Below, one piece after another: positions 91 to 56,501 of a DNA stretch of 64,000 nt. Source of the DNA: Candidatus Hadarchaeota archaeon (GTDB taxonomy: Archaea > Hadarchaeota > Hadarchaeia > Hadarchaeales > JAWBSP01); the NCBI GenBank assembly GCA_964632175.1, contig CAZWBJ010000002.1, positions 13,878 through 77,877 on the forward strand, in the 5' to 3' direction. The notes beneath the pieces were generated by a model that did no database searches, had not been told where the DNA came from, and worked only from the letters and a program-made list of their open reading frames with translations. How positions within the stretch are numbered: the first letter of the stretch is position 1; each line of letters opens with the position of its first letter. The position numbers and the translations under genes are program-made.

Positions 91-1737
91 TTGCCCCTTG
101 CCCTCCCCCTCTTCCTCTCGGTCGCCGAGCCCGCCGGCGCCGACAGCATGACCGCCTACGTCTCAGGTCTCAGGGTGCTGGTAGTGAGCCCCAACGGCGG
201 GGAGCTCTGGTGGGGGTACAGGACCATCCAGTGGTCGGGCGCTTGCGACCCTCCCGACAACGTCACCTACAGGATAGAGATAAGCGTCGATGGCGGTTCC
301 TCTTGGGGATACGTGGACGAGAAGAGCTTCTGGGAGGAAAACATTCCCGCCCTGCACGAGGTGGTTTTCAACACGACGGGGATAGAGAACTCGACCAAGT
401 GCTTGGTGAGGGTGAGCGCGAAGGCCCAGACTTGGGGATTTGAGAACTCCGACACCTCCGATAACTTCTTCACCATTCAAAACGTCCTCCCCCCACCCCC
501 CCTGACGCCCACCGTCCTGTCCCTCTCCCCCCAGAGCTTCTCCATGAACCCCGGAGAAACCAGGATCTTCACCGCAACCCTCCTTGACAATTCCGGAAAT
601 CCCGTCCGCGATAAGGTCATCACGTGGAGCGCGACTGCCGGTTACTTCTCCATGACCACGTCGGTGACCAACTCCCTCGGTCAGGCTTGGACGGTCTATG
701 TTGCCCCCGATGTCGCGACCGAGACTTCCGTCGTGATAACCGTGTCCTTTGCGGGGGACGAGCAGTACCTGAGCGACAGGACGAGCGCCACGGGAGAGAT
801 CTCCCCGCTTCAAGTGCCCCCGGCGTGGACCCCGACATCCCTTACGCTCTCCCCCGACATCTTCACAATTGAGTCGGGATCGACCATTTCCCTCGTCGCG
901 GTGCTCCTTGACTCCAGTTTCAACCCGCTTGCCGGCAAAACCATCACCTGGACGGCAACGGCCGGGGAGGTCTCACCCGCGACAACGAGCACAAACGCGC
1001 AAGGGAAGGTCACCGTGCTTTACACAGCCCCAGTGGTGGACATCCGGACGGCGGTCATGGTAATCGCCACCTTCTGGGGCGACAACCAGTACCGGGCCTC
1101 CCAAGCTGTTTCCAAGGGCCTGGTGGTTCTTCCCGAGGTGGCCAAGAGCATCGAGAACCTCACAGGCTCCCTCCAGGACCTGAAGTTCTCCGTCGACAAT
1201 CTCGCCCAGGAGATCAGCAAGGTGGCGGGGGCGATTTCTGAGGGGAGGGTGGCGGCCAGCGTGACGGTGAAGGTGGAGGTGGAGACCGGGCGGGTCAAGG
1301 TGAAAAAGGACTTCCAGCACGAGCAGGTTCAGGCCCAAGTTGAGGTGAGGGGGAACAACGTGATCGCGAGGATAAGCTCGGAAAACCGGGAGGGGCGCAC
1401 GGTCATCCTGAACGTGGACAACCGCGTCCTGCCGATTGTCAACATCCGGCACGTGAGGGTAGAGGTAGACGGGCAGGAGATCCCGCTGGCGGACGACTAC
1501 GACGATGTTCTCGACCCGACGAACGACGGCGGGTGGGCGGAGTATCTGATCCTCGTCGGCGGAGAGGGCATCCAAGTCCTGGTCTCCCTTCCGCACTTCT
1601 CCACCCGGACCATCACCATCAGGGGACCGATCACTGGAGGTCCCTCGTATTGGACGCCCGCGCTGGTGGCGGTTAGCATTGTGGTTATCGTGCTCATCCT
1701 CCTTCTCACCCTCAGGAGGAAGCCCGTACCCAGATAG
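91..1737 (+). CDS. Secreted or cell-surface protein. It has a hydrophobic signal-like N-terminus, two tandem ~100-aa Ig-like repeats, several N-glycosylation sequons, and a C-terminal TM helix with an RRKPVPR tail. The start is unresolved: the frame stays open back to window position 1.
   Basis: Hydrophobic LLLPSLLLLPLALPLFLSVAEPAGADS stretch. Internal repeat ITWSATAGYF...TVYVAP / ITWTATAGEV...VLYTAP. Sequons NVT/NTT/NST/NLT. C-terminal VAVSIVVIVLILLLTLRRK. No stop between position 1 and 91. A GGAAGGAGG motif sits at 47-55. Confidence 0.5.
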   Translation: MPLALPLFLSVAEPAGADSMTAYVSGLRVLVVSPNGGELWWGYRTIQWSGACDPPDNVTYRIEISVDGGSSWGYVDEKSFWEENIPALHEVVFNTTGIENSTKCLVRVSAKAQTWGFENSDTSDNFFTIQNVLPPPPLTPTVLSLSPQSFSMNPGETRIFTATLLDNSGNPVRDKVITWSATAGYFSMTTSVTNSLGQAWTVYVAPDVATETSVVITVSFAGDEQYLSDRTSATGEISPLQVPPAWTPTSLTLSPDIFTIESGSTISLVAVLLDSSFNPLAGKTITWTATAGEVSPATTSTNAQGKVTVLYTAPVVDIRTAVMVIATFWGDNQYRASQAVSKGLVVLPEVAKSIENLTGSLQDLKFSVDNLAQEISKVAGAISEGRVAASVTVKVEVETGRVKVKKDFQHEQVQAQVEVRGNNVIARISSENREGRTVILNVDNRVLPIVNIRHVRVEVDGQEIPLADDYDDVLDPTNDGGWAEYLILVGGEGIQVLVSLPHFSTRTITIRGPITGGPSYWTPALVAVSIVVIVLILLLTLRRKPVPR

Positions 1738-5001: not shown

Positions 5002-5287
5002 CAGTTTCTTGCCAGGGGTCGAAAACTGTTTTTCGGGTTTGGCAAGTGAGTTCTCGTTTCAACAAGACCTCAGGATAGAATTCGGGGCTCAGTTGCGAAA
5101 AGCAGGAGTTACCGATTGATAAAACCCTGCAGCAGATCCCCGGGACGGAATTTCTCCCCACATTCCGAAAACGGTCGGCTGAATGTCGACCAGTTTTCTG
5201 ATTTTTCCATTGCCCTTTCGTCAAGGATTTAGTATAAACTTCAGTGTCCTTTTAGCGAGGAAAGAAGACTGTGTGTTTTTAAACATA

Positions 5288-6532
5288 ATGCACAAAATAA
5301 TAATGCACAAAATCATAAAGCGTCCAACGGATGTGGACGCCTTCAACAAATTGGGTCCTTGGGTGCTGATTTGCGGTAGGAGGAAAACGGGGAAGACTTT
5401 CTTCGTTCGGGAGTTCCTTGACTGGGACGAATACTTCTTCGTGAAGAGAGGAGGGCGATCGCTGCTTGACGGGGAGGGGAGGGAGCTGAGCTACCCGACC
5501 TTTCTGGAGGTCTTCAGGAGGGATTTTCCAGAAAAGTGCTTCGCCATCGACGAATTCCAGAGACTTCCCGACGATTTCTCCGACCTCCTCCATTCCATGG
5601 GAATGAGGGGGAGGTTGATTGCGGTGACCTCAGCCCTCTCTTTCTCCAAGAAGATGCTGGAAGGCTCTTCTCCCCTTCTTGGGCTTTTCTCCGTTCTCAA
5701 ACTTGGGCTGGTGGACGAAAGGGACATCCTGCTGGGGCTTTCGAGGGAGCTGAAAGGAAGGGAGCTCATCGAGGCATCGGTCTACCTTAGGGAGCCATGG
5801 CTCGTCCCGAGGTTTCGGGGAAGGATGAAGGAGTTCCTCCCATCCTTTCTCTACGAGCAGAGGGGAGCAATCAAGGCGCTGCTCGGCGAGATCTTCACGG
5901 AGGAGGAAAGGGAACTCTCTCTCGTCTACCAGGGAATTCTTGAGGCTGTCGCCATGGGGAAACGGGTAAGCACGGAGATATCCAGCCATCTCTACTCCCT
6001 GGGACTCCTTCCAAAGGACAATCCCGGCGCTATCCAGAGATACCTGGAGGTCCTGGTCGAGACCAATCTCCTCGAGAAGACACCGGTTTACGGATCGAAG
6101 AAGTTCAGATACCGACATGCCTCCCCCCTCCTTGATCTTCACTTCTATCTGGAGGGAAAGTACTCATACACCGAAACGGAAATCCCCGAGCAATTCATCG
6201 GGGAGGTCGTTCAACAGAAGCTACCCGTCCACGTGGAGGAATTCTTCTCCTCCCTTCTCTCCAAACTCCTCGGCCTGAGAAGGGTGGCGGTTGAGGAGCC
6301 ACCCTTAGACATCGCCCTTTTCGAGTTCAAGCGGTTGAAGGTGGTCGGGGAGGTGAAGTGGGGGAAGGTGGAAAAGGAAGAGCTCCAAAGGATAGGAGAG
6401 CGACTGAGAAAATTCGACGCCGAACGGTATCTCATAGTTCCAGAGGATGGGATAGAGCTGGAGGGCGTAAAGGTTCTTGATGTTCCGGCAATCCTAGAAA
6501 TCCTGAAGTCGGGATATCCAAAGGAAGTCTAA
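5288..6532 (+). CDS. Archaeal ATPase family protein (AAA+ P-loop) with a DUF234 C-terminal domain
   Basis: Walker A GRRKTGKT and Walker B FAIDEFQ. The start is probably ATG 5288 or 5303, within a 15-bp tandem duplication that encodes MHKII-MHKII. The six-frame ORF extends back to 5183. Confidence 0.75.
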   Translation: MHKIIMHKIIKRPTDVDAFNKLGPWVLICGRRKTGKTFFVREFLDWDEYFFVKRGGRSLLDGEGRELSYPTFLEVFRRDFPEKCFAIDEFQRLPDDFSDLLHSMGMRGRLIAVTSALSFSKKMLEGSSPLLGLFSVLKLGLVDERDILLGLSRELKGRELIEASVYLREPWLVPRFRGRMKEFLPSFLYEQRGAIKALLGEIFTEEERELSLVYQGILEAVAMGKRVSTEISSHLYSLGLLPKDNPGAIQRYLEVLVETNLLEKTPVYGSKKFRYRHASPLLDLHFYLEGKYSYTETEIPEQFIGEVVQQKLPVHVEEFFSSLLSKLLGLRRVAVEEPPLDIALFEFKRLKVVGEVKWGKVEKEELQRIGERLRKFDAERYLIVPEDGIELEGVKVLDVPAILEILKSGYPKEV

Positions 6533-17080: not shown

Positions 17081-19162
17081 CTATCCGACCTTCTGCAGGA
17101 CCTTCTGCTTGAAGCTCTCGTAGGCCTCCTTGAACTCCTTCCGGGTCTTCTGAACCGCCCCGAAAGCTGGCCAGCTCTCTGGAGGCAACCCCCCACTCCC
17201 AAAATCTACCTCCACCCCTGCCTCGCGCAACACTTGAATGAGTCCGGGGGTGAGTTCCAGAACCTTCCTGCACTCCTCCCCCACCTCATACCGCTCGAGT
17301 CTGCGGAGAATCTCCTTGTCTACCTCCCAGGCTATAGACTCGCGGAAACTCATGGGATCGAAGTTTGGAGAGAGACTCTCCTCGAAGACCAGCGCTTGGA
17401 AGTTAGGGAATTCGGTGTTAGTAACATGCTGGCGCGAGAGGGTTAGAAGAGTTTCCCTAGGCTTTCTCTTGGAAGCGGGAAGCATGTCTATGCCGCGCAG
17501 CACTTCCTCGGCCTGCTCTTCCGAAAGTCCATACTTCCTAGCTAGATAAGAGACCCACTTCTTCCTGTTCTCCGGACTGAAGAAGATCCGATACACCCGC
17601 TTGGTCACGAGAATCCCCACATGGGTCAAATCGTCGTCTATCACCTTCAGCTTTTCCTCAACCTCCGCCGGAGAATTTCCCAGCACCCCCGCCTTGGCGA
17701 GTAGCTTCACGAAGGGCTCCTTGTGGATCGGCCTTAGATACTTCCTGTCGCAAGCCAGCTCGATTTTTTCCTCCACGCTTTCATCTCCTTTTACTTTCAC
17801 CCCGAGCCCCTCGAGCAACTCGTTGAGCGCTCCCTCACCCAGGACCGCCAGCGCCCTCCGAAGCAGGATTTCCGCCTCAACCTCTCGGAGGTGGTCATCG
17901 AGCCTCCCTATCATGGTGGTTTCGTAAACGGTGGTCAGTTTCACCCCTCTCCTCACGGCCATTGCCCTCCCCTCCATCTTGGCCAGGATGAGGTGGGTCT
18001 CCTGAGAAACGCTATAGGTCTCCGTATTGTTGGTTCCTATACCCAAGCTCTCCAGCTCAGCGGTAATCCTTATGGAGGCTGGACTGTTCCCGGCGACCTT
18101 GAACACCAAGTTCGGCCTCCCCCTTTCCAGCGAGGGGGAGTACCCCCAGAGAAGGTAGGAATCGTATTTCACAAGAAAATCCGTGGCGTCGGAGTATATT
18201 TTAAGGGCATCCCTGAGGCTCGCCTCCACACTGTCCGCCACGAAGGGGTTCAGCTGATAGCTGATCATTCCGTGCTCGTACCCAGAGCCGATGAAGATGG
18301 GTCTAAAAACCGCCAGATTGGGGAAGACCGAGACCTCGGTGGCCAGCATGGTGAGTTCATCCGGGTTCTTGACACCCCTTTCAGCCCTCGCGGTCTTGAG
18401 ATCCGGACAGAAGCTCTCCCCGGAGAATCCTTCCCAGAGAGCCGGCTCATCCTCGTAGGCGCACGCGGCCAGAACGGGATTGGTGGAGACCTGGACGAAA
18501 CCCAGATGTCTGAGCCATCGGAGCCCCAGGGCGTAATCGTTTCCAAACTTCCCCAGACCAGAGAAACTGAGTTTGTAGTAAATATTGGACTGAAATTCCT
18601 CCCGGCCCGCTTCTAGGAAGCTCTCGAACAGATTCCGATCATCGAGCCTTTCGCGAATCCTATCGGCCATCCTCGAGAGCATGGAGCCAGGAGGCCGGTA
18701 GTAAACGGACATGGGCTTCTTCATGTCCGAGAGAAGGGCTTCCACAACCTCTCTTGAAACGGGCAGGTCTGGATCGGCCTTTCTTTCCCACTCCTGCCAG
18801 CTCTTCAAGGTTTCCCGAAGGAGCCGTATGGAGGCGGCCACTTCTTCCTCGTCCAGTCCTACCCACTTCCTTTCCACCCCGATGAGGTTAAAGTAAAGCT
18901 GGGCTAGGAAGTCATAGGACCGCAACCACTCCAGAATCCCCCTCTCGTCCCAGTAGCAGGAGGCTCTCCTCACCACTAAGGTCAGTTCCCTGAGGGTCTG
19001 GGCCACCACCTCCGGTAGTGGGAGCTCTCGGTGCAGGAAGTGGTCGGCCGCCAACTTGGTGTGGCCACTTAACACCAGGGCGCTGACAAGCTCCGCATGA
19101 CCGCTGGCCTTCGGCGGAAGCGGCAGGGGAGCGGGTGCGGAAGTTTTTTGGAGCATTACCAT
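17081..19162 (-). CDS. Large (693 aa) uncharacterised protein whose central region is transaldolase-like
   Basis: FVQVSTNPV resembles the transaldolase TTNP signature. VFKVAGNSPASIRITAELESLGIGTNNTETYSVSQ matches the Schiff-base lysine region KIP.T..GI.A...LE..GI..N.TL.FS..Q. The long N- and C-terminal extensions are unassigned. Confidence 0.5.
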   Translation of the reverse strand: MVMLQKTSAPAPLPLPPKASGHAELVSALVLSGHTKLAADHFLHRELPLPEVVAQTLRELTLVVRRASCYWDERGILEWLRSYDFLAQLYFNLIGVERKWVGLDEEEVAASIRLLRETLKSWQEWERKADPDLPVSREVVEALLSDMKKPMSVYYRPPGSMLSRMADRIRERLDDRNLFESFLEAGREEFQSNIYYKLSFSGLGKFGNDYALGLRWLRHLGFVQVSTNPVLAACAYEDEPALWEGFSGESFCPDLKTARAERGVKNPDELTMLATEVSVFPNLAVFRPIFIGSGYEHGMISYQLNPFVADSVEASLRDALKIYSDATDFLVKYDSYLLWGYSPSLERGRPNLVFKVAGNSPASIRITAELESLGIGTNNTETYSVSQETHLILAKMEGRAMAVRRGVKLTTVYETTMIGRLDDHLREVEAEILLRRALAVLGEGALNELLEGLGVKVKGDESVEEKIELACDRKYLRPIHKEPFVKLLAKAGVLGNSPAEVEEKLKVIDDDLTHVGILVTKRVYRIFFSPENRKKWVSYLARKYGLSEEQAEEVLRGIDMLPASKRKPRETLLTLSRQHVTNTEFPNFQALVFEESLSPNFDPMSFRESIAWEVDKEILRRLERYEVGEECRKVLELTPGLIQVLREAGVEVDFGSGGLPPESWPAFGAVQKTRKEFKEAYESFKQKVLQKVG

Positions 19163-29095: not shown

Positions 29096-29313
29096 TGGGG
29101 AGAAAGAAAAAAGTTGGAGCTGCTGGGAGGTTCGGCCCGAGATACGGGCTGCGGGTGAGGAGAGAGTTCCTGAAGGTTGAGGAGAAAAGGAAGGGCTGGC
29201 ATAGATGCCCGGCATGCGAACAGAAGCGACTAAGGAGAGAAGCGGTCGGAATTTGGAGATGTCGATACTGCGGTGCAAAATTTGCCGGCCCGGCCTATGA
29301 ACCACCCGCCTGA
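29095..29313 (+). CDS. rpl37ae: Ribosomal protein L37Ae (eL43)
   Basis: CPACEQ...CRYCGAKF Zn ribbon; 72 aa. Confidence 0.9.
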   Translation: MGRKKKVGAAGRFGPRYGLRVRREFLKVEEKRKGWHRCPACEQKRLRREAVGIWRCRYCGAKFAGPAYEPPA

Positions 29314-29609
29314 TGTTCGAGTGGAGCAAGTACGGCTGCAAGGTCTGTAAGCGCACTTTTGTGCTGATGAAGTTGTCAGAGGAGGAGGAAAAGGGAAAGT
29401 TTTTAAAATGCCGCTTCTGTGAGACCAAAAACAACCTGACGAGGGAGAACCTCTCCAGCGGGAGGGTGACCTGCGGGGGCTGTGGCTCCATTCTCCTCTT
29501 CACCCCCGAGTCTAGGGAGGAGCTCCTGTCTCCTAGGTGCGTTTACTGCGGACAGAGGATCATCTACAAGCTCCGGCCGAAGAGGAAGAAAACCGTAAAA
29601 GCTGTGTGA
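29313..29609 (+). CDS. rpoP: RNA polymerase subunit Rpo12/RpoP with a duplicated zinc ribbon (98 aa; normally ~48 aa)
   Basis: C-terminal half VTCGGCGS...SPRCVYCGQRIIYKLRPKRKKTVKAV matches the RpoP consensus RCPYCG.KIL.K.RPK..VKAI. The N-terminal half YGCKVCKRTF...KCRFCE is a second CxxC-x17-CxxC ribbon. Confidence 0.7.
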   Translation: MFEWSKYGCKVCKRTFVLMKLSEEEEKGKFLKCRFCETKNNLTRENLSSGRVTCGGCGSILLFTPESREELLSPRCVYCGQRIIYKLRPKRKKTVKAV

Positions 29610-29666: not shown

Positions 29667-29921
29667 ATGGGAAGAACTAGTCCTGGAAGGAGAAACTTTC
29701 CATGGGGCGAGATTGAGATTTGGCTACCACCCAAGCTAGCGGAGGCCGTGTACCAGTCACTGAAACCGGAGGCGGTGCTCCCGGCCGCAAGGGTGAAGCT
29801 GAGAAGGGGAAGAACCCTCCGGATGAGGGTGGAAGGAAAAGACTTGGGTGCGCTTAGAGCCGCCTTCAACTCCCTTTTGCGTTGGACAAGTGTGGCCATG
29901 GGGGTGGTAGGAAGTGAATGA
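29667..29921 (+). CDS. KEOPS complex subunit Pcc1
   Basis: ~80 aa. ALRAAFNSLLRW resembles the Pcc1 motif. Conserved position before prefoldin beta. Confidence 0.55.
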   Translation: MGRTSPGRRNFPWGEIEIWLPPKLAEAVYQSLKPEAVLPAARVKLRRGRTLRMRVEGKDLGALRAAFNSLLRWTSVAMGVVGSE

Positions 29922-30264
29922 ACTTTCCCCGCAAGCCCGCCACCAGCTAGAGCAATTCCAGCAGGCGCAACAACAGGCGCAGGCGCTGGCGGCGCAAAGA
30001 GCCCAACTTCAGAGTCTCATCACGGAGATCGAGGAAGCACTTGAAGAACTCTCAAAAGTGGGTGAGGAAACCCCTGTCTACAAGGCGGTGGGGCGCCTCC
30101 TCATCAAGCACGCCAAAGGGGAGATGGAAAAGGAACTCCGGGAGGAGAAGGAAACACTGGAGCTGAGGGTGAAGGTGCTCTCCAGACAGGAGGAGAGGGT
30201 GGTGGAGAGGATGCAGGAGATAAGGCAGAAGTTACAGGAAATGCTCAAAGCTTCCGCGAAATGA
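29914..30264 (+). CDS. pfdB: Prefoldin subunit beta
   Basis: Coiled-coil / beta-hairpin / coiled-coil architecture; 116 aa. Confidence 0.85.
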   Translation: MNELSPQARHQLEQFQQAQQQAQALAAQRAQLQSLITEIEEALEELSKVGEETPVYKAVGRLLIKHAKGEMEKELREEKETLELRVKVLSRQEERVVERMQEIRQKLQEMLKASAK

Positions 30265-30273
30265 GCTCACCCC

Positions 30274-31248
30274 ATGAAGGAGATTGCCCGCCTGCTGAAG
30301 GAGGCTACCAGTAAGGGGGAGAGAATCCTCGTGTTGTGCCATGAAAACGCTGACGTTGATGCCGTCGCTTCGACCACCGTCACCTGCGAGGCTCTGAACT
30401 CTCTGGGAGGGAGGGCTTGGGCTGGATGCGAGAGCCTCAGCAAACTGGCGGAGCATGTGCTCTCCTTGACAGGGAGACAAATCCAAACCGAACCCTCCTT
30501 CGATGCCGATCATTTCCTGCTTCTGGACACCTCCAGCCTAGAGCACTTGGGCAGCAGATTCGGCGAAAAGCTGAGAAACACCAGGATCCTCATGGTGGAT
30601 CATCACAAGCCCGTGGAGGAGGCGAGGCAACAGGCCCTGAGCGCCTACATTGATGAGACCTCCACCTCCGAGGCCGAACTCGTCCTGAAGCTGCTGAAGG
30701 AGCTGGGGGTCAGGCCCTCTCCCGATCAGAGCACCCTCCTGCTGGCTGGAATTCTGACAGACACTGCGGAGCTCAGGCTGGCAAAACCAGAAACGTTTGG
30801 TGCCATCCTAGAACTCCTTCAGCTGGGAGCTGACTACCAGCGGGCACAGGAGCTGATAAGGATACCGGAGGAAATCTCTAGAAAAATAGCCATGATAAAG
30901 GCCGCGAAGCGTGCCGAGATGGAGGAAATAAAGGGTTTCCTAGTTCTGTTCTCCGAAGTGGGATCTTTTGAGGCCGACGCCGCCGTGGCCCTACTTAAGC
31001 TAGGGGGCGATCTGGCCTTCGTTGGTTCACAAAGTGAGGGAAGGGTGAGGGTTTCGGCCAGAGCTAGACCAGAGGTTTGCGAACGCACGCGGTTACACCT
31101 CGGCCAGCTCATGATAGATTCTGCCAAAACCTTTAACGGCACGGGCGGGGGGCACGCAGGAGCAGCCAGTTTCACGGGCAAGGCCTCTCTGGCGGAAGTG
31201 AAGAACTGGCTGGTGAACAAACTCTACGAGCACCTTCTCCCCAAATAG
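30274..31248 (+). CDS. DHH/DHHA1 family phosphoesterase (NrnA-like)
   Basis: DHH motif (MVDHH) and DHHA1 GGGHAGAA motif; 324 aa. Confidence 0.8.
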   Translation: MKEIARLLKEATSKGERILVLCHENADVDAVASTTVTCEALNSLGGRAWAGCESLSKLAEHVLSLTGRQIQTEPSFDADHFLLLDTSSLEHLGSRFGEKLRNTRILMVDHHKPVEEARQQALSAYIDETSTSEAELVLKLLKELGVRPSPDQSTLLLAGILTDTAELRLAKPETFGAILELLQLGADYQRAQELIRIPEEISRKIAMIKAAKRAEMEEIKGFLVLFSEVGSFEADAAVALLKLGGDLAFVGSQSEGRVRVSARARPEVCERTRLHLGQLMIDSAKTFNGTGGGHAGAASFTGKASLAEVKNWLVNKLYEHLLPK

Positions 31249-31339
31249 AACCGCTCGTGACATTCGATTGGTCTAACTGCGCTCGAAAGACGTTCTGACC
31301 TGCCGCTGTAAAGGTTTCTAATCCCTCACTTCAGTAAAG

Positions 31340-32743
31340 ATGTACCTGATCCTAGGGTGCAATGAACTCGGCTATGAGGTGGCTGAGAGACTGAGAAAGG
31401 AGGGAGCGGAGCTTCTGCTCATCGACCCCTCCCAAGAAAAACTCTCGGAACTTAGAAACCTGAACGTGAGGGTGGGAGACTTCTACGACCCGGAGTTCCT
31501 CAAACAGGTGGCGGAAATGAAGAGAGCCACTACCATCTTCATCTCCACGCCGGAGTTCGACAGAACCCTTGAGACCTTGAAGGCGATCAATCAGGCTAAG
31601 AAGGAGCTAAAAATAGATCCCGTGATTCTGGTGCTAACCCCCGATGCCTTTGTGGAAAAAGAGTTGAAGAGATTGGGGGCCACGGAGGCAGTCCCCATCC
31701 CACAGGTTTTGGGCGAGACCATCTTCAAGGAGTTTGAGAGAGCCAGAGAGAGGGCGGCTGAGGCGCGCCTGAGGAGTCTAGTGCAGGAGACCCGAGGCAG
31801 GATGCTCATCCTCACTCACACCAACCCTGATCCCGACGCTATAGCCAGTGCGGTTGCCCTGAAGACTTATGTCAAAGCCTTTGGAGTGGATGCAGACATT
31901 GCCTATGACGGAGAGATGGGATACCCCCAGAACAGGGCAATGTGCAACCTCCTTCAGGTGGAGTTGCGCGGGGTGGAGAAAGTAAACTTCAAGGATTACC
32001 TTAACTTCGCTCTCGTTGATGTGGCAACCAGGGGCTACTGTGCTCTGCCCAAGGAGATCACCCCCACCATCGTCATAGACCATCACTCCGTCCCACCCAG
32101 CGAGGTCTCTGGGAGGATGGTGGAGCTCGCTCCCGTGGGTGCCTGCTCAACCATCTTGGCCAACTATCTGGAGTATGCGGGGATACCCGCTCAGGGGCCT
32201 CTAGCCTCCGCTCTCGTGCTGGGGATCTTAACCGACACCTCCAACCTCTCCAGTGCCACTCCCCCCGATGTGGAGGCCTACTGGAAGCTGAGGAAATCCT
32301 CGGACCCCCAAGTTCTAAGGGCGATCCAGCAGCCACCCTATTCACGGGGGATGCTCTCCGCCCTTCCCACCGCCCTGAGAAAAGAAAAAATAATTGGCTC
32401 CTGCCTCATCACCAGCGCCGGGGAAATCGAAGAGGAGGATACCGTCTCTCAATTGGCTGACTTCCTCCTTGCAAGAGAGGGGGTGACGACGGTCCTTGTC
32501 TATGGGGTGATGGGTGAAAAAGTCAGAATCTCCGCTAGGACAACCGACTCCACCATTCATTTGGGTAAAGCCTTCTCCGAGGCCTTCGGCAGATTTGGGG
32601 GAGGTCACCAAAGCATGGCGGGAGCAAAGATACCCTTCCCCCAGAAACCAACTCAGACCCAGATAAACTCCTTGGTCAGAAAATTCCTGCAAGCGGTGGG
32701 GCTGAAACCAAAACGTGGGAGAGTTTCTAAAAAGGGCCCTTAA
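31340..32743 (+). CDS. TrkA-N (Rossmann/RCK_N) domain fused to a DHH/DHHA1 phosphoesterase
   Basis: N-terminal LILGCNELGYEVAERL...LLLIDPS Rossmann fold. VIDHH and GGGHQSMAG in the C-terminal part; 467 aa. Confidence 0.75.
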   Translation: MYLILGCNELGYEVAERLRKEGAELLLIDPSQEKLSELRNLNVRVGDFYDPEFLKQVAEMKRATTIFISTPEFDRTLETLKAINQAKKELKIDPVILVLTPDAFVEKELKRLGATEAVPIPQVLGETIFKEFERARERAAEARLRSLVQETRGRMLILTHTNPDPDAIASAVALKTYVKAFGVDADIAYDGEMGYPQNRAMCNLLQVELRGVEKVNFKDYLNFALVDVATRGYCALPKEITPTIVIDHHSVPPSEVSGRMVELAPVGACSTILANYLEYAGIPAQGPLASALVLGILTDTSNLSSATPPDVEAYWKLRKSSDPQVLRAIQQPPYSRGMLSALPTALRKEKIIGSCLITSAGEIEEEDTVSQLADFLLAREGVTTVLVYGVMGEKVRISARTTDSTIHLGKAFSEAFGRFGGGHQSMAGAKIPFPQKPTQTQINSLVRKFLQAVGLKPKRGRVSKKGP

Positions 32744-33533
32744 GGGAATCCTGCCTGCGGAGGTTCTGGGAAAACTGGGCGGATACGAAGTAGTAGGGCA
32801 CGTTGCCATTTTGAGGCTTCCAGAAGAACTCTCGCGCTGGAAGGAGCCCATCGCGGCTGCCCTCCTGAAAAGAGGTGGAATAAAGACGGTGGTCCTCTGG
32901 AAGGGAACGGAAGGAAGAATGAGACTTCCACAGGTGGAGGTGATAGCGGGGGAGAGCACCGAGACCGTACACAGAGAAAACGGGTGCCTCTTCAAGTTGG
33001 ACGTTTCTAAGGTTCTTTTCTGCCCGGGAAACTTGTATGAGAGAATGCGTCTGCCAAAGCTCGTGAAGGATGGAGAGGTAGTGGTGGACATGTTCGCCGG
33101 TGTGGGACAGTTCACCATCCCGGTAGCCAAGCACGCGAACCCCTCCCTAGTTTACTCCATCGAGCTGAATCCGGTGGCCTACTCCTACCTTTGCGAAAAT
33201 GTGAGGATCAACAGGGTGGGGCACCGGGTCAGACCTCTGCTGGGGGATTGTGAAAGGGTGGCACCGAGAGGGGTGGCAGACAGGATAATTCTAGGCCTCC
33301 TCCACCTCTCTCCCCTCTATCTTCCCCTCGCGATAGAGGTGCTGAAGCCCGAGGGGGGTGTAATTCACTACCACGAGAGCGTGCCTTGCGCGGTTAGGTT
33401 TGAGAGACCCGTAAAAAGAATCCTGGAGGCGGCAGGGGGGAGAAAAGTGGAGATCTTGGGAAAGAGGGTGGTCAAGAGCTACTCGCCGGGGGTGGATCAT
33501 GTCGTCATCGATGCGAGCATCGGTTCCAACTGA
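32715..33533 (+). CDS. Met-10+ family tRNA methyltransferase (Trm5 / Taw2-like)
   Basis: DMFAGVGQFTIP SAM-binding motif; 272 aa. Confidence 0.75.
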   Translation: MGEFLKRALKGILPAEVLGKLGGYEVVGHVAILRLPEELSRWKEPIAAALLKRGGIKTVVLWKGTEGRMRLPQVEVIAGESTETVHRENGCLFKLDVSKVLFCPGNLYERMRLPKLVKDGEVVVDMFAGVGQFTIPVAKHANPSLVYSIELNPVAYSYLCENVRINRVGHRVRPLLGDCERVAPRGVADRIILGLLHLSPLYLPLAIEVLKPEGGVIHYHESVPCAVRFERPVKRILEAAGGRKVEILGKRVVKSYSPGVDHVVIDASIGSN

Positions 33534-33984
33534 AAAGGAACTCCAGAGGTTGAGAGCAGTGGCGGACTACCAGTTCGACCGCGGTGTGGGTGAGGCACTC
33601 TTCCGGGGGGAGCTGAGGGTGATAAGGGGAAAAGGCGGAAAAATCAGGCAGGTTTGGGCAGAGGGAAAGCCGCTCTGCTCCATCAGGGCCTCGGACGGCT
33701 TCATAGTCCTGAACAGGGAGGGGGCGGCTAGAGTGCACTCGGTGCTCAAGTTCCCTAGGCTCAGGGTGGTGATAAAGGAGGAAGCCGTGCCCTTCGTGGA
33801 GAAGGGTAGGGATGTCTTCGCCAAGCACGTGGTGGAAGCCGACCCAGAAATCAGACCCGCCGAAGAAGTGCTGGTGGTAGATCAGGGAAACCGACTCCTC
33901 GCCTCGGGGAGGGCGGTGCTCACGGGAGAGGAAATGAAGGCCTTCAAAGTGGGCGTCGCTGTTAAGGTGAGGAGGTCGCTCTAG
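33499..33984 (+). CDS. PUA domain-containing RNA-binding protein
   Basis: C-terminal PUA-like region (EEVLVVDQGNRLLASGRAVL); 161 aa. Confidence 0.55.
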   Translation: MSSSMRASVPTEKELQRLRAVADYQFDRGVGEALFRGELRVIRGKGGKIRQVWAEGKPLCSIRASDGFIVLNREGAARVHSVLKFPRLRVVIKEEAVPFVEKGRDVFAKHVVEADPEIRPAEEVLVVDQGNRLLASGRAVLTGEEMKAFKVGVAVKVRRSL

Positions 33985-52523: not shown

Positions 52524-55500
52524 TCACCCCCTCGTGAAGCTTTTCCTCTGCCTGAACTCCTCCTGCTTTCCCTCGTTCCAGTTCCGAACGGGCCTGAAGT
52601 AGCCCACCACCCTAGAGTAGACCTCGGTCTCATGACCGCAGGAGGGGCAAAGTGGATAGTTTCCCGGGAGGTATCCGTGATTTGGGCAAATCGAATATGT
52701 TGGAGTAATGGTGTAGTAGGGTAGCCTGGAGCGCTCGGCAATCTTCCTCACCAGATTCTTACAGCTCTCGCCGTCCTCCAGGCTCTCCCCAAGGAAGATG
52801 TGAAAGACCGTTCCCCCCGTGTAAAGAGACTGCAGAGGCTCTTGGTGTTTGATAGCCTCCCAAAGATCAAGGTCCGCATCCACGGGAAGCAGGGTGGAGT
52901 TGGTGTAATAAGGGACGTCTTTTCCGGCGGTGATGATATCGGGATACATTCGCTTGTCGATCCTTGCGAGCCTGTAGCTGGTCCCCTCGGCGGGGGTGGC
53001 CTCCAAGTTGTAAAGATGGCCCGTCTCCGCCTGGAATTCCCTGAGCTTTTTGAGCATGAACCTCAGCGTTCGTATAGCAAAGTTCCTTCCTTCCTGCTCC
53101 GCGATGCTGCAACCAAGCAGGTTGAGGCAAGCCTCGTTCATCCCGACCAACCCGATGGTGGAGAAGTGATAATCCAAGGTGCCCAGATATCGTTTGGTGT
53201 AGGGGAGGAGGCCCGAATTCATTTTCCTCGTGACCTCCTTCCTCTTTATCTCGAGAGATATCTTCGCTAAGTTCATGAGGCGCTCCAGATTTTCAAAGAA
53301 CTCGTCCTCGTTCTCCGACAAGTATCCTATTCTAGGCATGTTGATCGTGACCACGCCCACGGAACCCGTTTTATCACCGGCGCCGAAAAGTCCCCCCGTG
53401 ATGTTCCTCCGCAACTCCCTCAAATCGAGCCGGAGATGGCAACACATTGACCTGACATCGCTGGGCCTGAGGTCGGAATTGATGAAGTTCTGGAAGTAGG
53501 GAAGTCCATATTTGGCAGTCATCTCGAAAAGGAGGGAGGAAACCCCGTCGTCCCACTTAAAGTCCCTAGTTAGACCAAAGGTGGGGATGGGAAAAGTGAA
53601 GGGCCTCCCTTCGGCATCCCCTTCCGTCATCACCTCGATGAAGGCCCTGTTGATCAGTTCCACCTCCTCCTCGAACTCCTCGTACGTCCTGTCCAGTGGC
53701 TTGCCCCCCACGATGGCGGGAGTTCTCGCTAGGTCATCGGGCACGGTAAGGCTGAGGGAAATATTGGTGAAGGGGGTCTGCCCTCCCCAGCGAGAAGAAA
53801 TATTCAGGTTGTAGACAAATTGCTGGAGCTTCTGCTTGACTTCCTTGTAGGTCAGCCCGTCCACCTTAACAAAGGGTGCAAGCAGGACATCCACAGCATT
53901 AAAGGCCTGTGCCCCTGCCCATTCGTTTTGAAGCGTTCCCACGAAGTTCGCCATCTGCAGGAGGGCTGTGTCGAGGTGCCGGGGAGGGGTGGAGGAGACC
54001 TTTCCCGGAACCCCATTGAACCCCTCCAGCAGGAGCTGCTGCAGCGACCAGCCCGCACAGTTACCGGACCAGACAAGCTTACCGTTCCTCTCCACGAGCA
54101 GGGTTCCGTTGGGCACGGTCAGATCGTAAACTTTTCCCCTGTACGATACAACTTCCGGTAAGCCGCGGAATTCAGGGGTGAGCTGGTGGTTCTCCACATA
54201 GACGACGTAACCGGTTTTCCTCTTCCTTATCGTACCGCATCTGCCAGTCTTCACCAAGCACTCGACCACATCTTCCGCGAGCCTCTTTGAGGAAGTGTAA
54301 TACGCGATGAGCCTGTCCCCCTTCACCCTCCCGTCCCCTTTAAACAGCTCCCCTAGGAAGGCCGAGAGGAGCTTCGGGTTCAGACGCTTCACTTCCGGGG
54401 GGATGAATTTCTCCCTGCTTCTACCCAGCCTCTTGACGTAGTCAAATACCTGTTTTGAGTAGAAGGTTACGTGAGATTTGGTTATCACAGGTTCAAAGCC
54501 CAACTGCCTGATTATTCTGGCAATCCGGCGCTGGTTACGCTTGTTGACCTGCGAGATGGAAATCCGGTATCCTCCTTTTGAAACGTCGCAGTTACCCTCC
54601 GCTATGTACCACCCCAGGAACCGCACAAAGGTCTCGGTGGGTGGGTCAACGTTTTTGAAGGTCCCTCCCTGCCCGTCAGAATGTACTTCCGGGAGACGCA
54701 ACTCTCCCTCCCCTTCCCAAACGGCATCCTTTCTGAACTCTATCACCCTCCTGTTAGAAAGTTCCGAAGCGGTGACAAACTTCCACTCTGGATCACAGTC
54801 TCCCGGTGCCCTCGGCTTCCTTCCCCGATAAATCCATTCGCTCACAGTCCCCTCGGGGATGCCGATCTCCTTGGAGATCCTGCGGGAGCCCCAACCCCTC
54901 TCCCTGTGTAACTTTAGTGCCTGGAAGTACTTCTGCAGCCTTGTTTCCATCTCTCCGCGCTTCTGCATCCTCCTGCGGATCTTTGTGCGGTTTGGCGGGA
55001 TTCTAACAAGCATGCGATGCTCGGGCGTCACAAGCAGATCGATGCTCCTGTTCCTCCAGTGATACATCGGACCGTCCCAGTCGAAAACTTGCTTGGCTAT
55101 GGGATGCTGAAACTCCAGCCTGCCCGTCTTTAGGTTAAGAGTTGCAACCCTATCGCTTGGTGTCACATCCTTGAAGTATTTGAACCCTTCCTCCGTCAGA
55201 ACCCTAGTTTCCTCATCGAAGCAATAGCCACACAGACCCATTCCCAGATCATGGATGTGGAAGTCGCCGGACACGTGAGCGGCCGCCACCTCAGGTGGGT
55301 AAACCTTTTCGAGAGTGTACCTTGCAATCACCGAGGTTCCAATGTGGAAGAGGAGGCCGGAAAGCGAGTAGCCCATGTTGCTGTTCTCCTTCACCCTCCA
55401 GTCGCTCAGGCTGAGGTAGTCATCCACGAGCTTCCTGACCTGTAGCTCGGCCCTCAGCTTCCTGAGCTCCTCCCTCTGCTTCCGGTAGATGATGAAGGCT

Positions 55501-55763
55501 TTGGCCGTCTTGGCGTGACCACGCTCGATCAGGATCTTCTCGATGGCATCTTGGATCTGCTCCACGTGCGGCGGGTTTTCCGAACCGAAGCCCTGTTTTA
55601 CGAGATAGTTCTCGACCTCCACAGCCAGTCTCTCGGCCCTCCGCTTGTCCCTCCCCCCCACCTCCTGGGCCGCCTTCCAGATGGCGTTGACGATCCTTTC
55701 CCTCTCGTAGGCGACGACCGTTCCATCCCTTTTGATCACCTTGGTCAGAACCATCTCAAACAC
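52524..55763 (-). CDS. nrdD: Anaerobic ribonucleoside-triphosphate reductase (class III RNR) interrupted by a 388-aa intein
   Basis: N-terminal ATP-cone, a C-terminal Zn ribbon CPNHG...CPSCG, and the glycyl-radical motif RVVGYF. The extein is 691 aa; the intein spans aa 181-568. Confidence 0.9.
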   Translation of the reverse strand: MFEMVLTKVIKRDGTVVAYERERIVNAIWKAAQEVGGRDKRRAERLAVEVENYLVKQGFGSENPPHVEQIQDAIEKILIERGHAKTAKAFIIYRKQREELRKLRAELQVRKLVDDYLSLSDWRVKENSNMGYSLSGLLFHIGTSVIARYTLEKVYPPEVAAAHVSGDFHIHDLGMGLCGYCFDEETRVLTEEGFKYFKDVTPSDRVATLNLKTGRLEFQHPIAKQVFDWDGPMYHWRNRSIDLLVTPEHRMLVRIPPNRTKIRRRMQKRGEMETRLQKYFQALKLHRERGWGSRRISKEIGIPEGTVSEWIYRGRKPRAPGDCDPEWKFVTASELSNRRVIEFRKDAVWEGEGELRLPEVHSDGQGGTFKNVDPPTETFVRFLGWYIAEGNCDVSKGGYRISISQVNKRNQRRIARIIRQLGFEPVITKSHVTFYSKQVFDYVKRLGRSREKFIPPEVKRLNPKLLSAFLGELFKGDGRVKGDRLIAYYTSSKRLAEDVVECLVKTGRCGTIRKRKTGYVVYVENHQLTPEFRGLPEVVSYRGKVYDLTVPNGTLLVERNGKLVWSGNCAGWSLQQLLLEGFNGVPGKVSSTPPRHLDTALLQMANFVGTLQNEWAGAQAFNAVDVLLAPFVKVDGLTYKEVKQKLQQFVYNLNISSRWGGQTPFTNISLSLTVPDDLARTPAIVGGKPLDRTYEEFEEEVELINRAFIEVMTEGDAEGRPFTFPIPTFGLTRDFKWDDGVSSLLFEMTAKYGLPYFQNFINSDLRPSDVRSMCCHLRLDLRELRRNITGGLFGAGDKTGSVGVVTINMPRIGYLSENEDEFFENLERLMNLAKISLEIKRKEVTRKMNSGLLPYTKRYLGTLDYHFSTIGLVGMNEACLNLLGCSIAEQEGRNFAIRTLRFMLKKLREFQAETGHLYNLEATPAEGTSYRLARIDKRMYPDIITAGKDVPYYTNSTLLPVDADLDLWEAIKHQEPLQSLYTGGTVFHIFLGESLEDGESCKNLVRKIAERSRLPYYTITPTYSICPNHGYLPGNYPLCPSCGHETEVYSRVVGYFRPVRNWNEGKQEEFRQRKSFTRG
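54060..55223 (-). mobile_element. Intein in nrdD with a LAGLIDADG homing endonuclease domain
   Basis: Starts with Cys (CFDEETRVLTEEGF, block A). LAGLIDADG-like motifs FLGWYIAEGN and LSAFLGELFKGDGRV. Ends in ...LVWSGN followed by the +1 Cys (CAGWSL). The penultimate residue is Gly, not the usual His. Confidence 0.8.
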
Positions 55764-55793: not shown

Positions 55794-56501
55794 TCATGCT
55801 CTCACCCTGCAGACTCCAAAGTGGGGGGAGATCTGCTTCCTCAGCTCATGGAGGAACTCCAGTGGATAGGGCTTGACCGAGGAAAAGGTGGGATCAACCA
55901 ACCTCGGCTCTGGTCTGAACTGTTGCAAGTAGTATCTCTGGGCCCCCTTCAGCTCCTGCGCTATTTGGAGGATGTCCTCTCTGGAGACCAGCCCCGGCAC
56001 CACGGTCGTCCTGAACTCGTAGGGGATGGAGGAGGACATGAGGATTTCCGCCGCCGTCCTCACCTCCCCGACCCCGTCACCTTGGGAAAAAAGGCGGTAC
56101 TTCTCGGGGGTGAGCGGTGCTTTCACATCCAAGGCCACGTAGTCCACCAAGCCCCCACCCACGAGCTTTTGCAGCAGGAGGGGATTCGAGCCGTTGGTGT
56201 CCAGCTTCACCGCGTACCCGAACCCCTTAATCCACTCAAGGAGCTGGGGAAGATCTTGGTGGATGGTGGGCTCCCCCCCGGAAATCACAACCCCGTCCAG
56301 CCAGTCCTTCCTAGAGCGGAAGAACCTATCGAGGTCCTCTTGGCAGGGAGAGGGCAGTGAGGAGGGGTTGAGGACTAAGTCGGCGTTGTAGCAGTAGGGA
56401 CACCTGAAGTTGCATCCCCCCAAGAAAAGTACCGAGGCTATCTTCCCCGGAAAGTCGATTAGGGAAGTCTTGAGAAACCCCTTTATGTTTTCAAAGATCA
56501 T
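55794..56501 (-). CDS. nrdG: Anaerobic ribonucleotide reductase activating protein (radical SAM)
   Basis: CNFRCPYC radical-SAM cluster motif; 235 aa. Confidence 0.85.
   Translation of the reverse strand: MIFENIKGFLKTSLIDFPGKIASVLFLGGCNFRCPYCYNADLVLNPSSLPSPCQEDLDRFFRSRKDWLDGVVISGGEPTIHQDLPQLLEWIKGFGYAVKLDTNGSNPLLLQKLVGGGLVDYVALDVKAPLTPEKYRLFSQGDGVGEVRTAAEILMSSSIPYEFRTTVVPGLVSREDILQIAQELKGAQRYYLQQFRPEPRLVDPTFSSVKPYPLEFLHELRKQISPHFGVCRVRA

Follow-up and report, generated by a model that had tools for sequence, protein, structure and literature searches.

Among the closest described counterparts of the genes analyzed here is PyaPDE of Pyrococcus yayanosii, a TrkA_N-DHH-DHHA1 protein described as a c-di-AMP phosphodiesterase; knockout of the PDE of Thermococcus kodakarensis reportedly tripled c-di-AMP (Jin et al. 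2023, as related in PMC12699388). The diadenylate cyclase DacZ has been described as confined to Euryarchaeota. Members of the arCOG01566/COG0618 group, designated 'nanoRNase/pAp phosphatase (c-di-AMP/oligoRNAs hydrolase)', include the haloarchaeal HVO_1690-type 'nrnA' and the solved structure PDB 3LLV, which is the N-terminal domain of a member of the Archaeoglobus type. The bacterial DhhP/NrnA set comprises Thermotoga maritima TmPDE (TM1595), Mycobacterium tuberculosis Rv2837c/CnpB, Borrelia DhhP, Staphylococcus aureus Pde2, and Bacillus subtilis NrnA. Finally, PyapApase (PYCH_17540) of P. yayanosii is an archaeal NrnA-like DHH-DHHA1 protein with strict specificity for pAp, encoded in a sulfate-assimilation cluster (PMC8268124).

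Two adjacent genes encoding DHH/DHHA1 proteins, ORF A and ORF B, were identified on the + strand of the window (the whole 64-kb stretch of DNA that was analyzed, assigned to Hadarchaeales from its nearest relatives), in agreement with the original prediction. The features of the locus are as follows.

29667..29921, + strand: Pcc1 (KEOPS subunit) gene (Pfam Pcc1, E 3.6e-12, 47 bits), which opens the Pcc1–prefoldin β–DHH module
29914..30264, + strand: prefoldin β gene (Pfam Prefoldin_2, E 8.6e-26), with its stop codon 9 nt before the start of ORF A
30274..31248, + strand: ORF A, 324 aa, predicted DHH-DHHA1 phosphoesterase (NrnA/DhhP type, stand-alone) whose gene closes the exosome/proteasome superoperon
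30322..30753, + strand: DHH domain of ORF A (aa 17-160, motifs I-IV; Pfam, alignment A2)
31009..31194, + strand: DHHA1 domain of ORF A (aa 246-307, containing VRVSARA and GGGH; Pfam, alignment A2)
31249..31339, no strand: 91-nt spacer between ORF A and ORF B, at the junction of two conserved gene blocks
31340..32743, + strand: ORF B, 467 aa, TrkA_N–DHH–DHHA1 (Pfam), of the euryarchaeal family with the reported c-di-AMP/pApA phosphodiesterase PyaPDE
31343..31693, + strand: TrkA_N (KTN/RCK_N) Rossmann domain of ORF B (aa 2-118), with a degenerate P-loop (G6-C-N-E-L-G11) and D29 kept at the end of β2
31697..31789, + strand: long helix of ORF B (aa 120-150) connecting TrkA_N to the catalytic domain (AlphaFold model, H120-150, pLDDT ~90)
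31802..32227, + strand: DHH domain of ORF B (aa 155-296; Pfam), with invariant N162 P163 D164 P165 D166, D247 H248 H249, and D299
32408..32656, + strand: DHHA1 domain of ORF B (aa 357-439; Pfam), containing S398/R400 and G421-G422-H423
32705..32740, + strand: Lys/Arg-rich disordered C-terminal tail of ORF B (KPKRGRVSKKGP; residues 458-467, pLDDT <50)
32715..33533, + strand: TYW2/Trm5-type tRNA methyltransferase gene (Pfam TYW2_N_2 and TRM5-TYW2_MTfase, E 2.2e-59), overlapping the end of ORF B by 29 nt
33499..33984, + strand: TGT_C2–PUA domain gene (Pfam and synteny), part of the B–TYW2–PUA–B3_4 block

We favor, with a probability of roughly 55%, the reading that these genes encode two anciently diverged phosphoesterases, ORF B acting on c-di-AMP/pApA and ORF A being of the nanoRNA type, and that they became neighbors by the joining of two gene blocks.

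All catalytic domains were recognized by Pfam above the cut-off. ORF A contained DHH (E 5.4e-13, 49.8 bits vs. a cut-off of 28.1) and DHHA1 (E 8.2e-8, 33.1 bits vs. 25.9), and ORF B contained DHH (E 5.9e-9) and DHHA1 (E 6.7e-11, 43.0 bits vs. 25.9). The DHH and GGGH motifs predicted earlier were found intact in both proteins. The motifs of ORF A are HENADVD, LLLDTSS, VDHH (109-111), GILTDT, VRVSARA, and GGGHAGAAS (GGGH at residues 291-294), and its motif I-IV residues D27, D29, D85, D109-H110-H111, and D163 are invariant or nearly so in alignment A2. The ORF B set consists of HTNPDPD (162-166), LVDVAT, IDHH (247-249), GILTDT, VRISART, and GGGHQSMAG (GGGH at residues 420-423), with D164, D166, D227, D247-H248-H249, and D299 invariant or nearly so in alignment A1. 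These motif sets far exceed chance.

The AlphaFold model of ORF A (pLDDT 92.9) has a two-domain DHH–linker–DHHA1 fold that superposes on NrnA, TmPDE, and Rv2837c (E 1e-23 to 1e-15, TM 0.72-0.81), and its best Foldseek matches were TmPDE TM1595 (E 1e-23, TM 0.80) and Rv2837c (TM 0.80). ORF A shares size, two-domain fold, and catalytic motifs with the bacterial DhhP/NrnA enzymes (TM 0.77-0.81), but the sequence identity is just 15-23%, and it belongs to an archaeal clade with members in Hadarchaeota, MSBL1, Thermococcales, and some Nitrososphaerales. Fold and motifs place ORF A among the stand-alone enzymes of the NrnA/DhhP type, for which activity on 2-5 nt RNA, pApA, or pAp would be expected. 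HAN was rejected as its identity, since HAN carries DnaJ-Zn/S1/OB domains, and so was PyapApase, whose DHH motif lies at residues 77-79 instead of 109-111 and whose gene does not adjoin prefoldin β. The catalytic part of ORF B likewise matched bacterial DhhP/NrnA enzymes in structure.

The original prediction placed both proteins in the nanoRNase/pAp phosphatase/cyclic-dinucleotide phosphodiesterase class, to be given up if they clustered firmly with RecJ-like exonucleases. The predicted structures bear this placement out, matching the NrnA/DhhP/GdpP class; RecJ structures ranked low, and neither protein clustered with RecJ. Some observations point toward RecJ/GAN/Cdc45-like ssDNA exonucleases, or toward family II pyrophosphatases/exopolyphosphatases, namely weak NCBIfam matches to the RecJ_archaeal and Mn-dependent pyrophosphatase models, a match of the DHH domain of ORF B to family II PPases in a PDB sequence search (E 1.7e-8), and the label 'exopolyphosphatase-related' in old annotations. 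Every one of these NCBIfam scores was, however, far under the curated cut-off: 43.6 bits (ORF A) and 24.1 bits (ORF B) vs. 360 for RecJ_archaeal, 15.9 bits vs. 850 for the GAN model, and 55.5 and 32.2 bits for the two proteins vs. 283 for PRK05427, the Mn-dependent pyrophosphatase type. No NCBIfam equivalog reached its cut-off for ORF A or ORF B. In addition, the C-terminal domain of both proteins is DHHA1 with GGGH and not DHHA2, OB-fold and CID domains are missing from both, and their length is insufficient. We regard these identities as very improbable.

The N-terminal TrkA-N domain that had been predicted for ORF B was confirmed by a TrkA_N profile match (Pfam, residues 2-118, E 4.6e-12, 46.7 bits vs. 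a cut-off of 23.8) together with a KTN Rossmann fold. The domain superposes on 3llv at 1.4 Å and also matches KTN domains solved with NAD(H). In ORF B and its 7-cluster clade, the dinucleotide loop reads GCNELG, with Asn in place of the middle Gly, whereas GxGxxG is present in 176 of 221 relatives; the P-loop is degenerate in 3llv too. An NAD/ATP site combines GxGxxG with an acidic residue that closes β2; ORF B retains just the latter, as D29. Classic NAD/ATP binding by this domain has probably been lost or altered, judging from its sequence. The original prediction of a ligand-gated phosphodiesterase is supported in part: the phosphodiesterase part agrees with the c-di-AMP role reported for the PyaPDE architecture, and gating by NAD/ATP is doubtful because the Rossmann GxGxxG loop is degenerate in the clade. 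ORF B also differs from GdpP, the bacterial membrane c-di-AMP phosphodiesterase, whose regulatory part is TM-PAS-GGDEF and not TrkA_N.

ORF B resembles PyaPDE and the T. kodakarensis PDE in combining TrkA_N, DHH, and DHHA1 in a euryarchaeon, a likeness drawn from architecture and a second-hand description of those proteins, and differs from them in its GCNELG loop and in the lack of a visible DAC partner within 80 kb. The ORF B family (arCOG01566 type) was found at 578 or more genomic loci, in Hadarchaeota, Methanofastidiosa, Hydrothermarchaeota, Archaeoglobi, Methanosarcinales, Methanomicrobiales, Methanocellales, and Halobacteria, with 239 representatives at E<=1e-30. Members from Haloferax, Methanosarcina, Archaeoglobales, and Hydrothermarchaeota align with ORF B over the full length at 30-38% identity. 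No Thermococcales protein was found among the best matches, including those of a protein search seeded with a Methanofastidiosales homologue. Named entries among 20 family representatives that were looked up came from Poseidoniales and Halobacteria, with no Thermococcales.

A diadenylate cyclase motif scan gave no hit in the window or in the loci compared, neither a DAC motif nor DisA_N turned up across the window and contig positions 5851-85746 (80 kb, Pfam lists), and Pfam detected no DAC in 30 further ORFs of the window. A literature search for c-di-AMP in Hadarchaeota returned no paper. A PDB search with the DAC domain of Listeria monocytogenes CdaA retrieved the entry 7dfx/7dg0 ('DAC domain-containing protein'), which might be archaeal.

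The DHH/DHHA1 enzymes of the NrnA/DhhP/GdpP class are notorious for promiscuity or variable specificity. The substrate therefore cannot be read from the fold alone, as the pAp-only PyapApase illustrates. It is possible, though less probable than the favored reading, that both proteins are housekeeping nanoRNases/pAp phosphatases (NrnA-like) without a role in c-di-AMP turnover, with the TrkA_N domain of ORF B as a mere oligomerisation scaffold. For the folds of ORF A and ORF B, NrnA, Pde2, and Bacteroides Nrn are as good a match as the PDEs, and this reading also draws on the empty DAC search over 80 kb, the degenerate P-loop shared by ORF B and 3llv, the RNA and tRNA genes adjoining ORF B, and the plain name 'nrnA' given to a haloarchaeal ORF B-type gene in a study of PRC-barrel proteins. 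Against it, a member of the same architecture reportedly hydrolyses c-di-AMP and a knockout raises c-di-AMP, according to PMC12699388, and the recovered ORF B-family matches are almost all euryarchaeal, as DacZ is said to be.

If the two proteins are anciently diverged phosphoesterases, as we prefer, both would be two-metal DHH/DHHA1 enzymes cleaving very short nucleotide substrates. ORF B would most likely yield AMP from c-di-AMP, from the linear pApA that arises from it, or from both, in line with the reported activity of PyaPDE; its DHH domain would hold an Mn2+/Co2+ pair and its DHHA1 domain (GGGH, S-x-R) the nucleotide. The KTN-like N-domain, connected through the 31-residue helix, would probably serve in oligomerisation or regulation. 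ORF A would most likely clear the di-/oligoribonucleotides that RNA decay leaves behind; pApA or pAp may be further substrates.

The TYW2 gene lies directly downstream of the ORF B homologue in 13 Hadarchaeota-type loci, within a B–TYW2–PUA–B3_4 block, and the neighbors in Hadarchaeota are tRNA-modification genes and not K+ or osmolyte genes. Haloarchaeal arCOG01566 members instead lie tail-to-tail with a PRC-barrel (CdpB1-type) gene. This block, the 29-nt overlap with the TYW2 gene, and the basic C-terminal tail, a frequent feature of Hadarchaeota homologues (alignment A1), would fit an RNA-processing phosphoesterase that acts on RNA or tRNA ends with the TYW2/Trm5 methyltransferase and the TGT_C2-PUA protein, and not a second-messenger enzyme. 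Nevertheless, among the loci compared, ORF B had no neighbors common across phyla, only lineage-specific ones, and the linkage to TYW2 is gone outside Hadarchaeota; therefore, it may be inherited gene order only. Moreover, every one of the nearest solved folds has mono-, di-, or nano-nucleotides as its substrate, and we consider a role on RNA ends improbable.

ORF A and ORF B share 24% identity, and the catalytic half of ORF B is much nearer (33-38%) to other stand-alone proteins of 340-360 aa than to ORF A, which rules out tandem duplication. Their adjacency was seen, among the loci compared, in the contig of the window itself and in a single close relative (L005) and nowhere else; being specific to this lineage, it also rules out a conserved operon of the two genes. 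On sequence comparison, ORF A and ORF B are best described as old paralogues and not as a functional pair, brought side by side when the window's lineage joined its exosome block to the B–TYW2–PUA block. No terminator-like site was found in the 91-nt spacer by a bacterial promoter/terminator scan, which is uninformative for an archaeon, and ORF B may have a promoter of its own there. Rfam and tRNA searches of the window gave no matches.

On the side of ORF A, the Pcc1–prefoldin β–DHH order was repeated in four further loci (L085, L088, L089, and L090). Orthologues of ORF A follow Pcc1/prefoldin β in Hadarchaeota (L085), MSBL1 (L088), Pyrococcus furiosus (L086), Thermococcus gorgonarius (L089), and L090, and the module is located at the 3' end of the archaeal exosome/proteasome superoperon. 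This context occurs in most of the contexts examined for the ORF A clade and is absent from bacterial DhhP/NrnA. The conserved link to the superoperon suggests that ORF A is an exosome-associated nanoRNase, which is the mildly new point of this analysis.

The removal of nanoRNAs is well defined in bacteria, where Orn and NrnA/B/C perform this step. A literature search found no assigned archaeal enzyme for nanoRNAs derived from the exosome. The Pcc1–prefoldin β–DHH module provides a concrete candidate for the enzyme clearing them, and the genetically tractable T. kodakarensis is suited to a test of this candidate. A bolder and rather doubtful proposal is that the ORF A clade represents the long-missing archaeal nanoRNase/dinuclease that finishes RNA decay by the exosome, and that, in the window's lineage, it forms a local 'small-nucleotide clean-up' cluster with the c-di-AMP/pApA phosphodiesterase ORF B, whose sensor domain would have lost its nucleotide loop. 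The clade concerned would consist of NrnA/DhhP-like proteins of ~325 aa whose genes immediately follow those for Pcc1 and prefoldin β in Hadarchaeota, MSBL1, and Thermococcales.

The reading of TrkA_N-DHH-DHHA1 proteins as c-di-AMP phosphodiesterases is already known biology, and the present finding is largely ordinary: the uncultured phylum Hadarchaeota gains one more representative of a family with a described architecture and likely activity. If Hadarchaeota carry DacZ, c-di-AMP signalling would extend to a deep-subsurface phylum; if they are without DacZ, the widespread TrkA_N-DHH-DHHA1 family would, in some archaea at least, have to do something different from turning over c-di-AMP. Additionally, public assemblies contained an identical copy of ORF B (P0001), as well as identical stretches of ORF A and ORF B.

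Two adjacent DHH/DHHA1 genes, the second fused to a TrkA_N domain, were confirmed by Pfam matches and intact motifs, in agreement with the original prediction:

ORF A, 30274-31248, 324 aa: DHH (Pfam E 5.4e-13) and DHHA1 (E 8.2e-8)
ORF B, 31340-32743, 467 aa: TrkA_N, DHH (Pfam E 5.9e-9), and DHHA1 (E 6.7e-11)

The N-terminus of B (residues 2-118, E 4.6e-12) passed the Pfam TrkA_N profile (46.7 bits, cut-off 23.8). All motif residues were intact in A (D27/D29, D85, D109-H110-H111, D163, R259/R263, and G291-H294) and B (N162-PDPD-166, D227, D247-H248-H249, D299, S398/R400, and G421-G422-H423), and the metal- and substrate-binding residues were invariant or nearly so across homologue alignments. 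In both proteins, the DHHA1 domain would hold very short nucleotides, and the DHH two-metal centre would cut their phosphodiester (or 3'-phosphomonoester) bonds. Additionally, residues 456-467 of B (window 32705-32740) form a Lys/Arg-rich disordered tail; basic C-terminal tails of up to approximately 40 residues are found in Hadarchaeota B homologues, and acidic ones in haloarchaeal homologues.

None of the curated NCBIfam models scored above cut-off for A or B, including RecJ_archaeal (43.6 bits for A and 24.1 for B, cut-off 360), GAN (15.9 bits, cut-off 850), and Mn-pyrophosphatase (55.5 and 32.2 bits, cut-off 283), the last of which led us to reject a pyrophosphatase reading. The AlphaFold models were of high confidence (pLDDT 92.9 for A and 90.2 for B), and that of A superposed on TmPDE and Rv2837c (TM 0.80 each), with RecJ, RecJ-Cdc45, GAN, and the HAN DHH domain ranked far lower. 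Because of these low scores and rankings, a RecJ-like DNA exonuclease was rejected for both proteins; neither this grouping nor a failing TrkA_N profile, either of which would have spoken against the prediction, was found.

B falls within a large family of euryarchaeal proteins that share its TrkA_N–DHH–DHHA1 architecture. A genome scan yielded at least 578 confirmed loci, the best 80 of which were examined for taxa and neighbours and covered Hadarchaeota, Methanofastidiosa, Hydrothermarchaeota, Archaeoglobaceae, Methanimicrococcus, Methanomicrobiales, Methanocellales, and many Halobacteria. Further members, from Methanosarcina, Methanoperedens, and Archaeoglobales, came from a second protein search. 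Among 1.84 billion cluster representatives searched exhaustively with HMMER, 239 matched the family at E<=1e-30 and 1239 at E<=1e-10. Full-length 471-aa B-type proteins were also observed on contigs binned as Desulfobacterales, Thermodesulfobacteriota, or 'Deltaproteobacteria' (loci L022 and L024; proteins P0272 and P0280), reflecting either horizontal transfer into bacteria or archaeal contigs mis-binned in bacterial MAGs.

The architecture, family, and plausible activity of the B type are already in the literature. As summarised in a 2025 paper (PMC12699388), Jin et al. (2023) inactivated the sole phosphodiesterase of T. kodakarensis and cellular c-di-AMP tripled, so that the phosphodiesterase function proposed for B was already in print for this architecture. 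B is putatively orthologous to the characterised Pyrococcus yayanosii enzyme PyaPDE, as judged by shared architecture rather than by a measured sequence comparison. By this analogy, B most likely degrades c-di-AMP and/or pApA as PyaPDE does, with a probability of about 0.5; a general nanoRNase or pAp phosphatase is the less likely alternative. No diadenylate cyclase motif was found in any frame of the window, and DisA_N, the Pfam domain of this enzyme, had no match in thirty additional window ORFs and was absent from precomputed Pfam lists for contig positions 5851-85746, a small part of the genome. No diadenylate cyclase was present around B homologues in the best 80 of the at least 578 loci, and our literature search found no paper treating c-di-AMP in Hadarchaeota.

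The ligand gating that had been proposed for B fared less well. Of 221 family members, 176 had the canonical GxGxxG dinucleotide loop; B and its six closest clusters had GxNxx[G/S] (GCNELG in B itself), and some other Hadarchaeota members GxD/T/SxxG. In a Rossmann fold, replacement of the middle glycine normally causes a clash with the dinucleotide pyrophosphate. With Asn at this position, NAD/ATP gating of B appears doubtful. PDB 3llv derives from the B family itself, as indicated by its match (E 2.8e-24) to the N-terminal part of an Archaeoglobaceae member, and its loop reads GSEAAG. Loop sequences thus point to recurrent loss of the middle glycine, 3llv included, despite its entry title, 'NAD(P)-binding domain of an exopolyphosphatase-related protein'. 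The TrkA_N domain and the 31-residue connecting helix of B may have a role in oligomerisation.

B has a 100% identical copy on a 99-kb ENA metagenome contig, and both proteins have their nearest named relatives in Hadarchaeales/Hadesarchaea MAGs; the closest genomic locus, L005, shows 69% (B) and 72% (A) identity. Upstream of A lie genes for proteasome α, SBDS, Rrp4, Rrp41, Rrp42, L37ae, a Zn-ribbon ORF, Pcc1, and prefoldin β, and downstream of B those for a TYW2/Trm5-type methyltransferase, a TGT_C2-PUA protein, a B3_4 protein, a CBS protein, and GlyRS, which places the pair at the 3' end of the archaeal exosome/proteasome superoperon. Two small ORFs in this region were observed:

29313-29609 (+): 98-aa ORF between L37ae and Pcc1 with four CxxC pairs (multi-zinc-ribbon), 76% identical in L005, no Pfam family above cut-off
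29667-29921 (+): 84-aa ORF, Pfam Pcc1 47 bits, without a gene call in the public contig record and probably a missed gene

A and B are not a functional pair. Among the best 80 of the at least 578 B loci, just two place A next to a B homologue, the window's own contig and L005, while B heads a B–TYW2–(PUA)–(B3_4) block in 13 Hadarchaeota-type loci. B and TYW2 overlap by 29 nt in the window; outside Hadarchaeota, the loci examined had no universal neighbour of B and the TYW2 link was lost. The 91-nt spacer between A and B is the seam of two gene blocks. Over the catalytic region, A is 24% identical to B, and the catalytic half of B is closer to other stand-alone proteins of 340-360 aa (33-38%) than to A; from these identities, A and B are judged to be old paralogues. 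Wyosine-pathway genes recur directly after DHH genes, which may be inherited gene order:

L085, 9639-9923: Wyosine_form fragment after the A orthologue in one Hadarchaeon
L088, 7036-7962: Taw1 (Radical_SAM + Wyosine_form) after the A orthologue in MSBL1
Window, 32715-33533: TYW2-type methyltransferase after B, likewise in 13 loci

Orthologues of A are approximately 50% identical across Hadarchaeota and 43% in MSBL1; those of Thermococcales, with 327-330 aa and annotated NrnA, are 33-36% identical. The A orthologues directly follow Pcc1 and prefoldin β in L085 (a distant Hadarchaeon, where the module comes after Rrp4-Rrp41-Rrp42), L088 (MSBL1), L086 (P. furiosus), L089 (T. gorgonarius), and L090, with a DUF3194 gene inserted before the A orthologue in Thermococcales; this context was not found in one Nitrososphaerales genome. 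In the window, the gap of 9 nt after prefoldin β suggests that A is co-transcribed with the superoperon. From this gene context, A most likely clears di-/oligoribonucleotides left by the phosphorolytic exosome. No close solved structure was found for the P. furiosus orthologue. Since HAN has extra DnaJ-Zn/S1/OB domains, and PyapApase differs both in the position of its DHH motif (residues 77-79) and in the location of its gene (a sulfate-assimilation cluster), both were rejected as identities of A. Taken together, A and B extend a described kind to an uncultured phylum. Modest additions are the degenerate P-loop, in the clade of the window's B, and the Pcc1–prefoldin β–DHH module, which is conserved and nominates a testable candidate for an archaeal nanoRNase.

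At haloarchaeal loci and one Hydrothermarchaeota locus, the B-family gene is followed after 6-530 nt by a PRC-barrel gene (Pfam E 3.2e-13) in tail-to-tail orientation (L048, L051, L053-L055, L062, L064, L067-L069, L071, L075, and L077), in agreement with the published PRC-barrel study reporting cdpB1 adjacent to 'nrnA'. Cell-division genes were reported to be up-regulated in a c-di-AMP-reduced Haloferax strain, so it is perhaps worth testing whether c-di-AMP is linked to cell division. The window has no PRC-barrel gene.

Other features of the window were as follows:

91-1737 (+): large protein with bacterial Ig-like Big_1/invasin D3 repeats just upstream of TFIIB (680 aa in L091, 7807-9849), probably a surface protein
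5183-6532 (+): 449-aa ORF, no Pfam match
17081-19162 (-): 693-aa ORF whose sole Pfam match is marginal and transaldolase-like, flanked by two xylose-isomerase-like TIM-barrel genes
52524-55763 (-): NrdD (ATP-cone + NRDD, anaerobic ribonucleotide reductase), interrupted by a LAGLIDADG-type insert (Pfam LAGLIDADG_3 E 2e-10, residues 467-519) that is probably an intein
55794-56501: NrdD radical-SAM activase, adjoining NrdD
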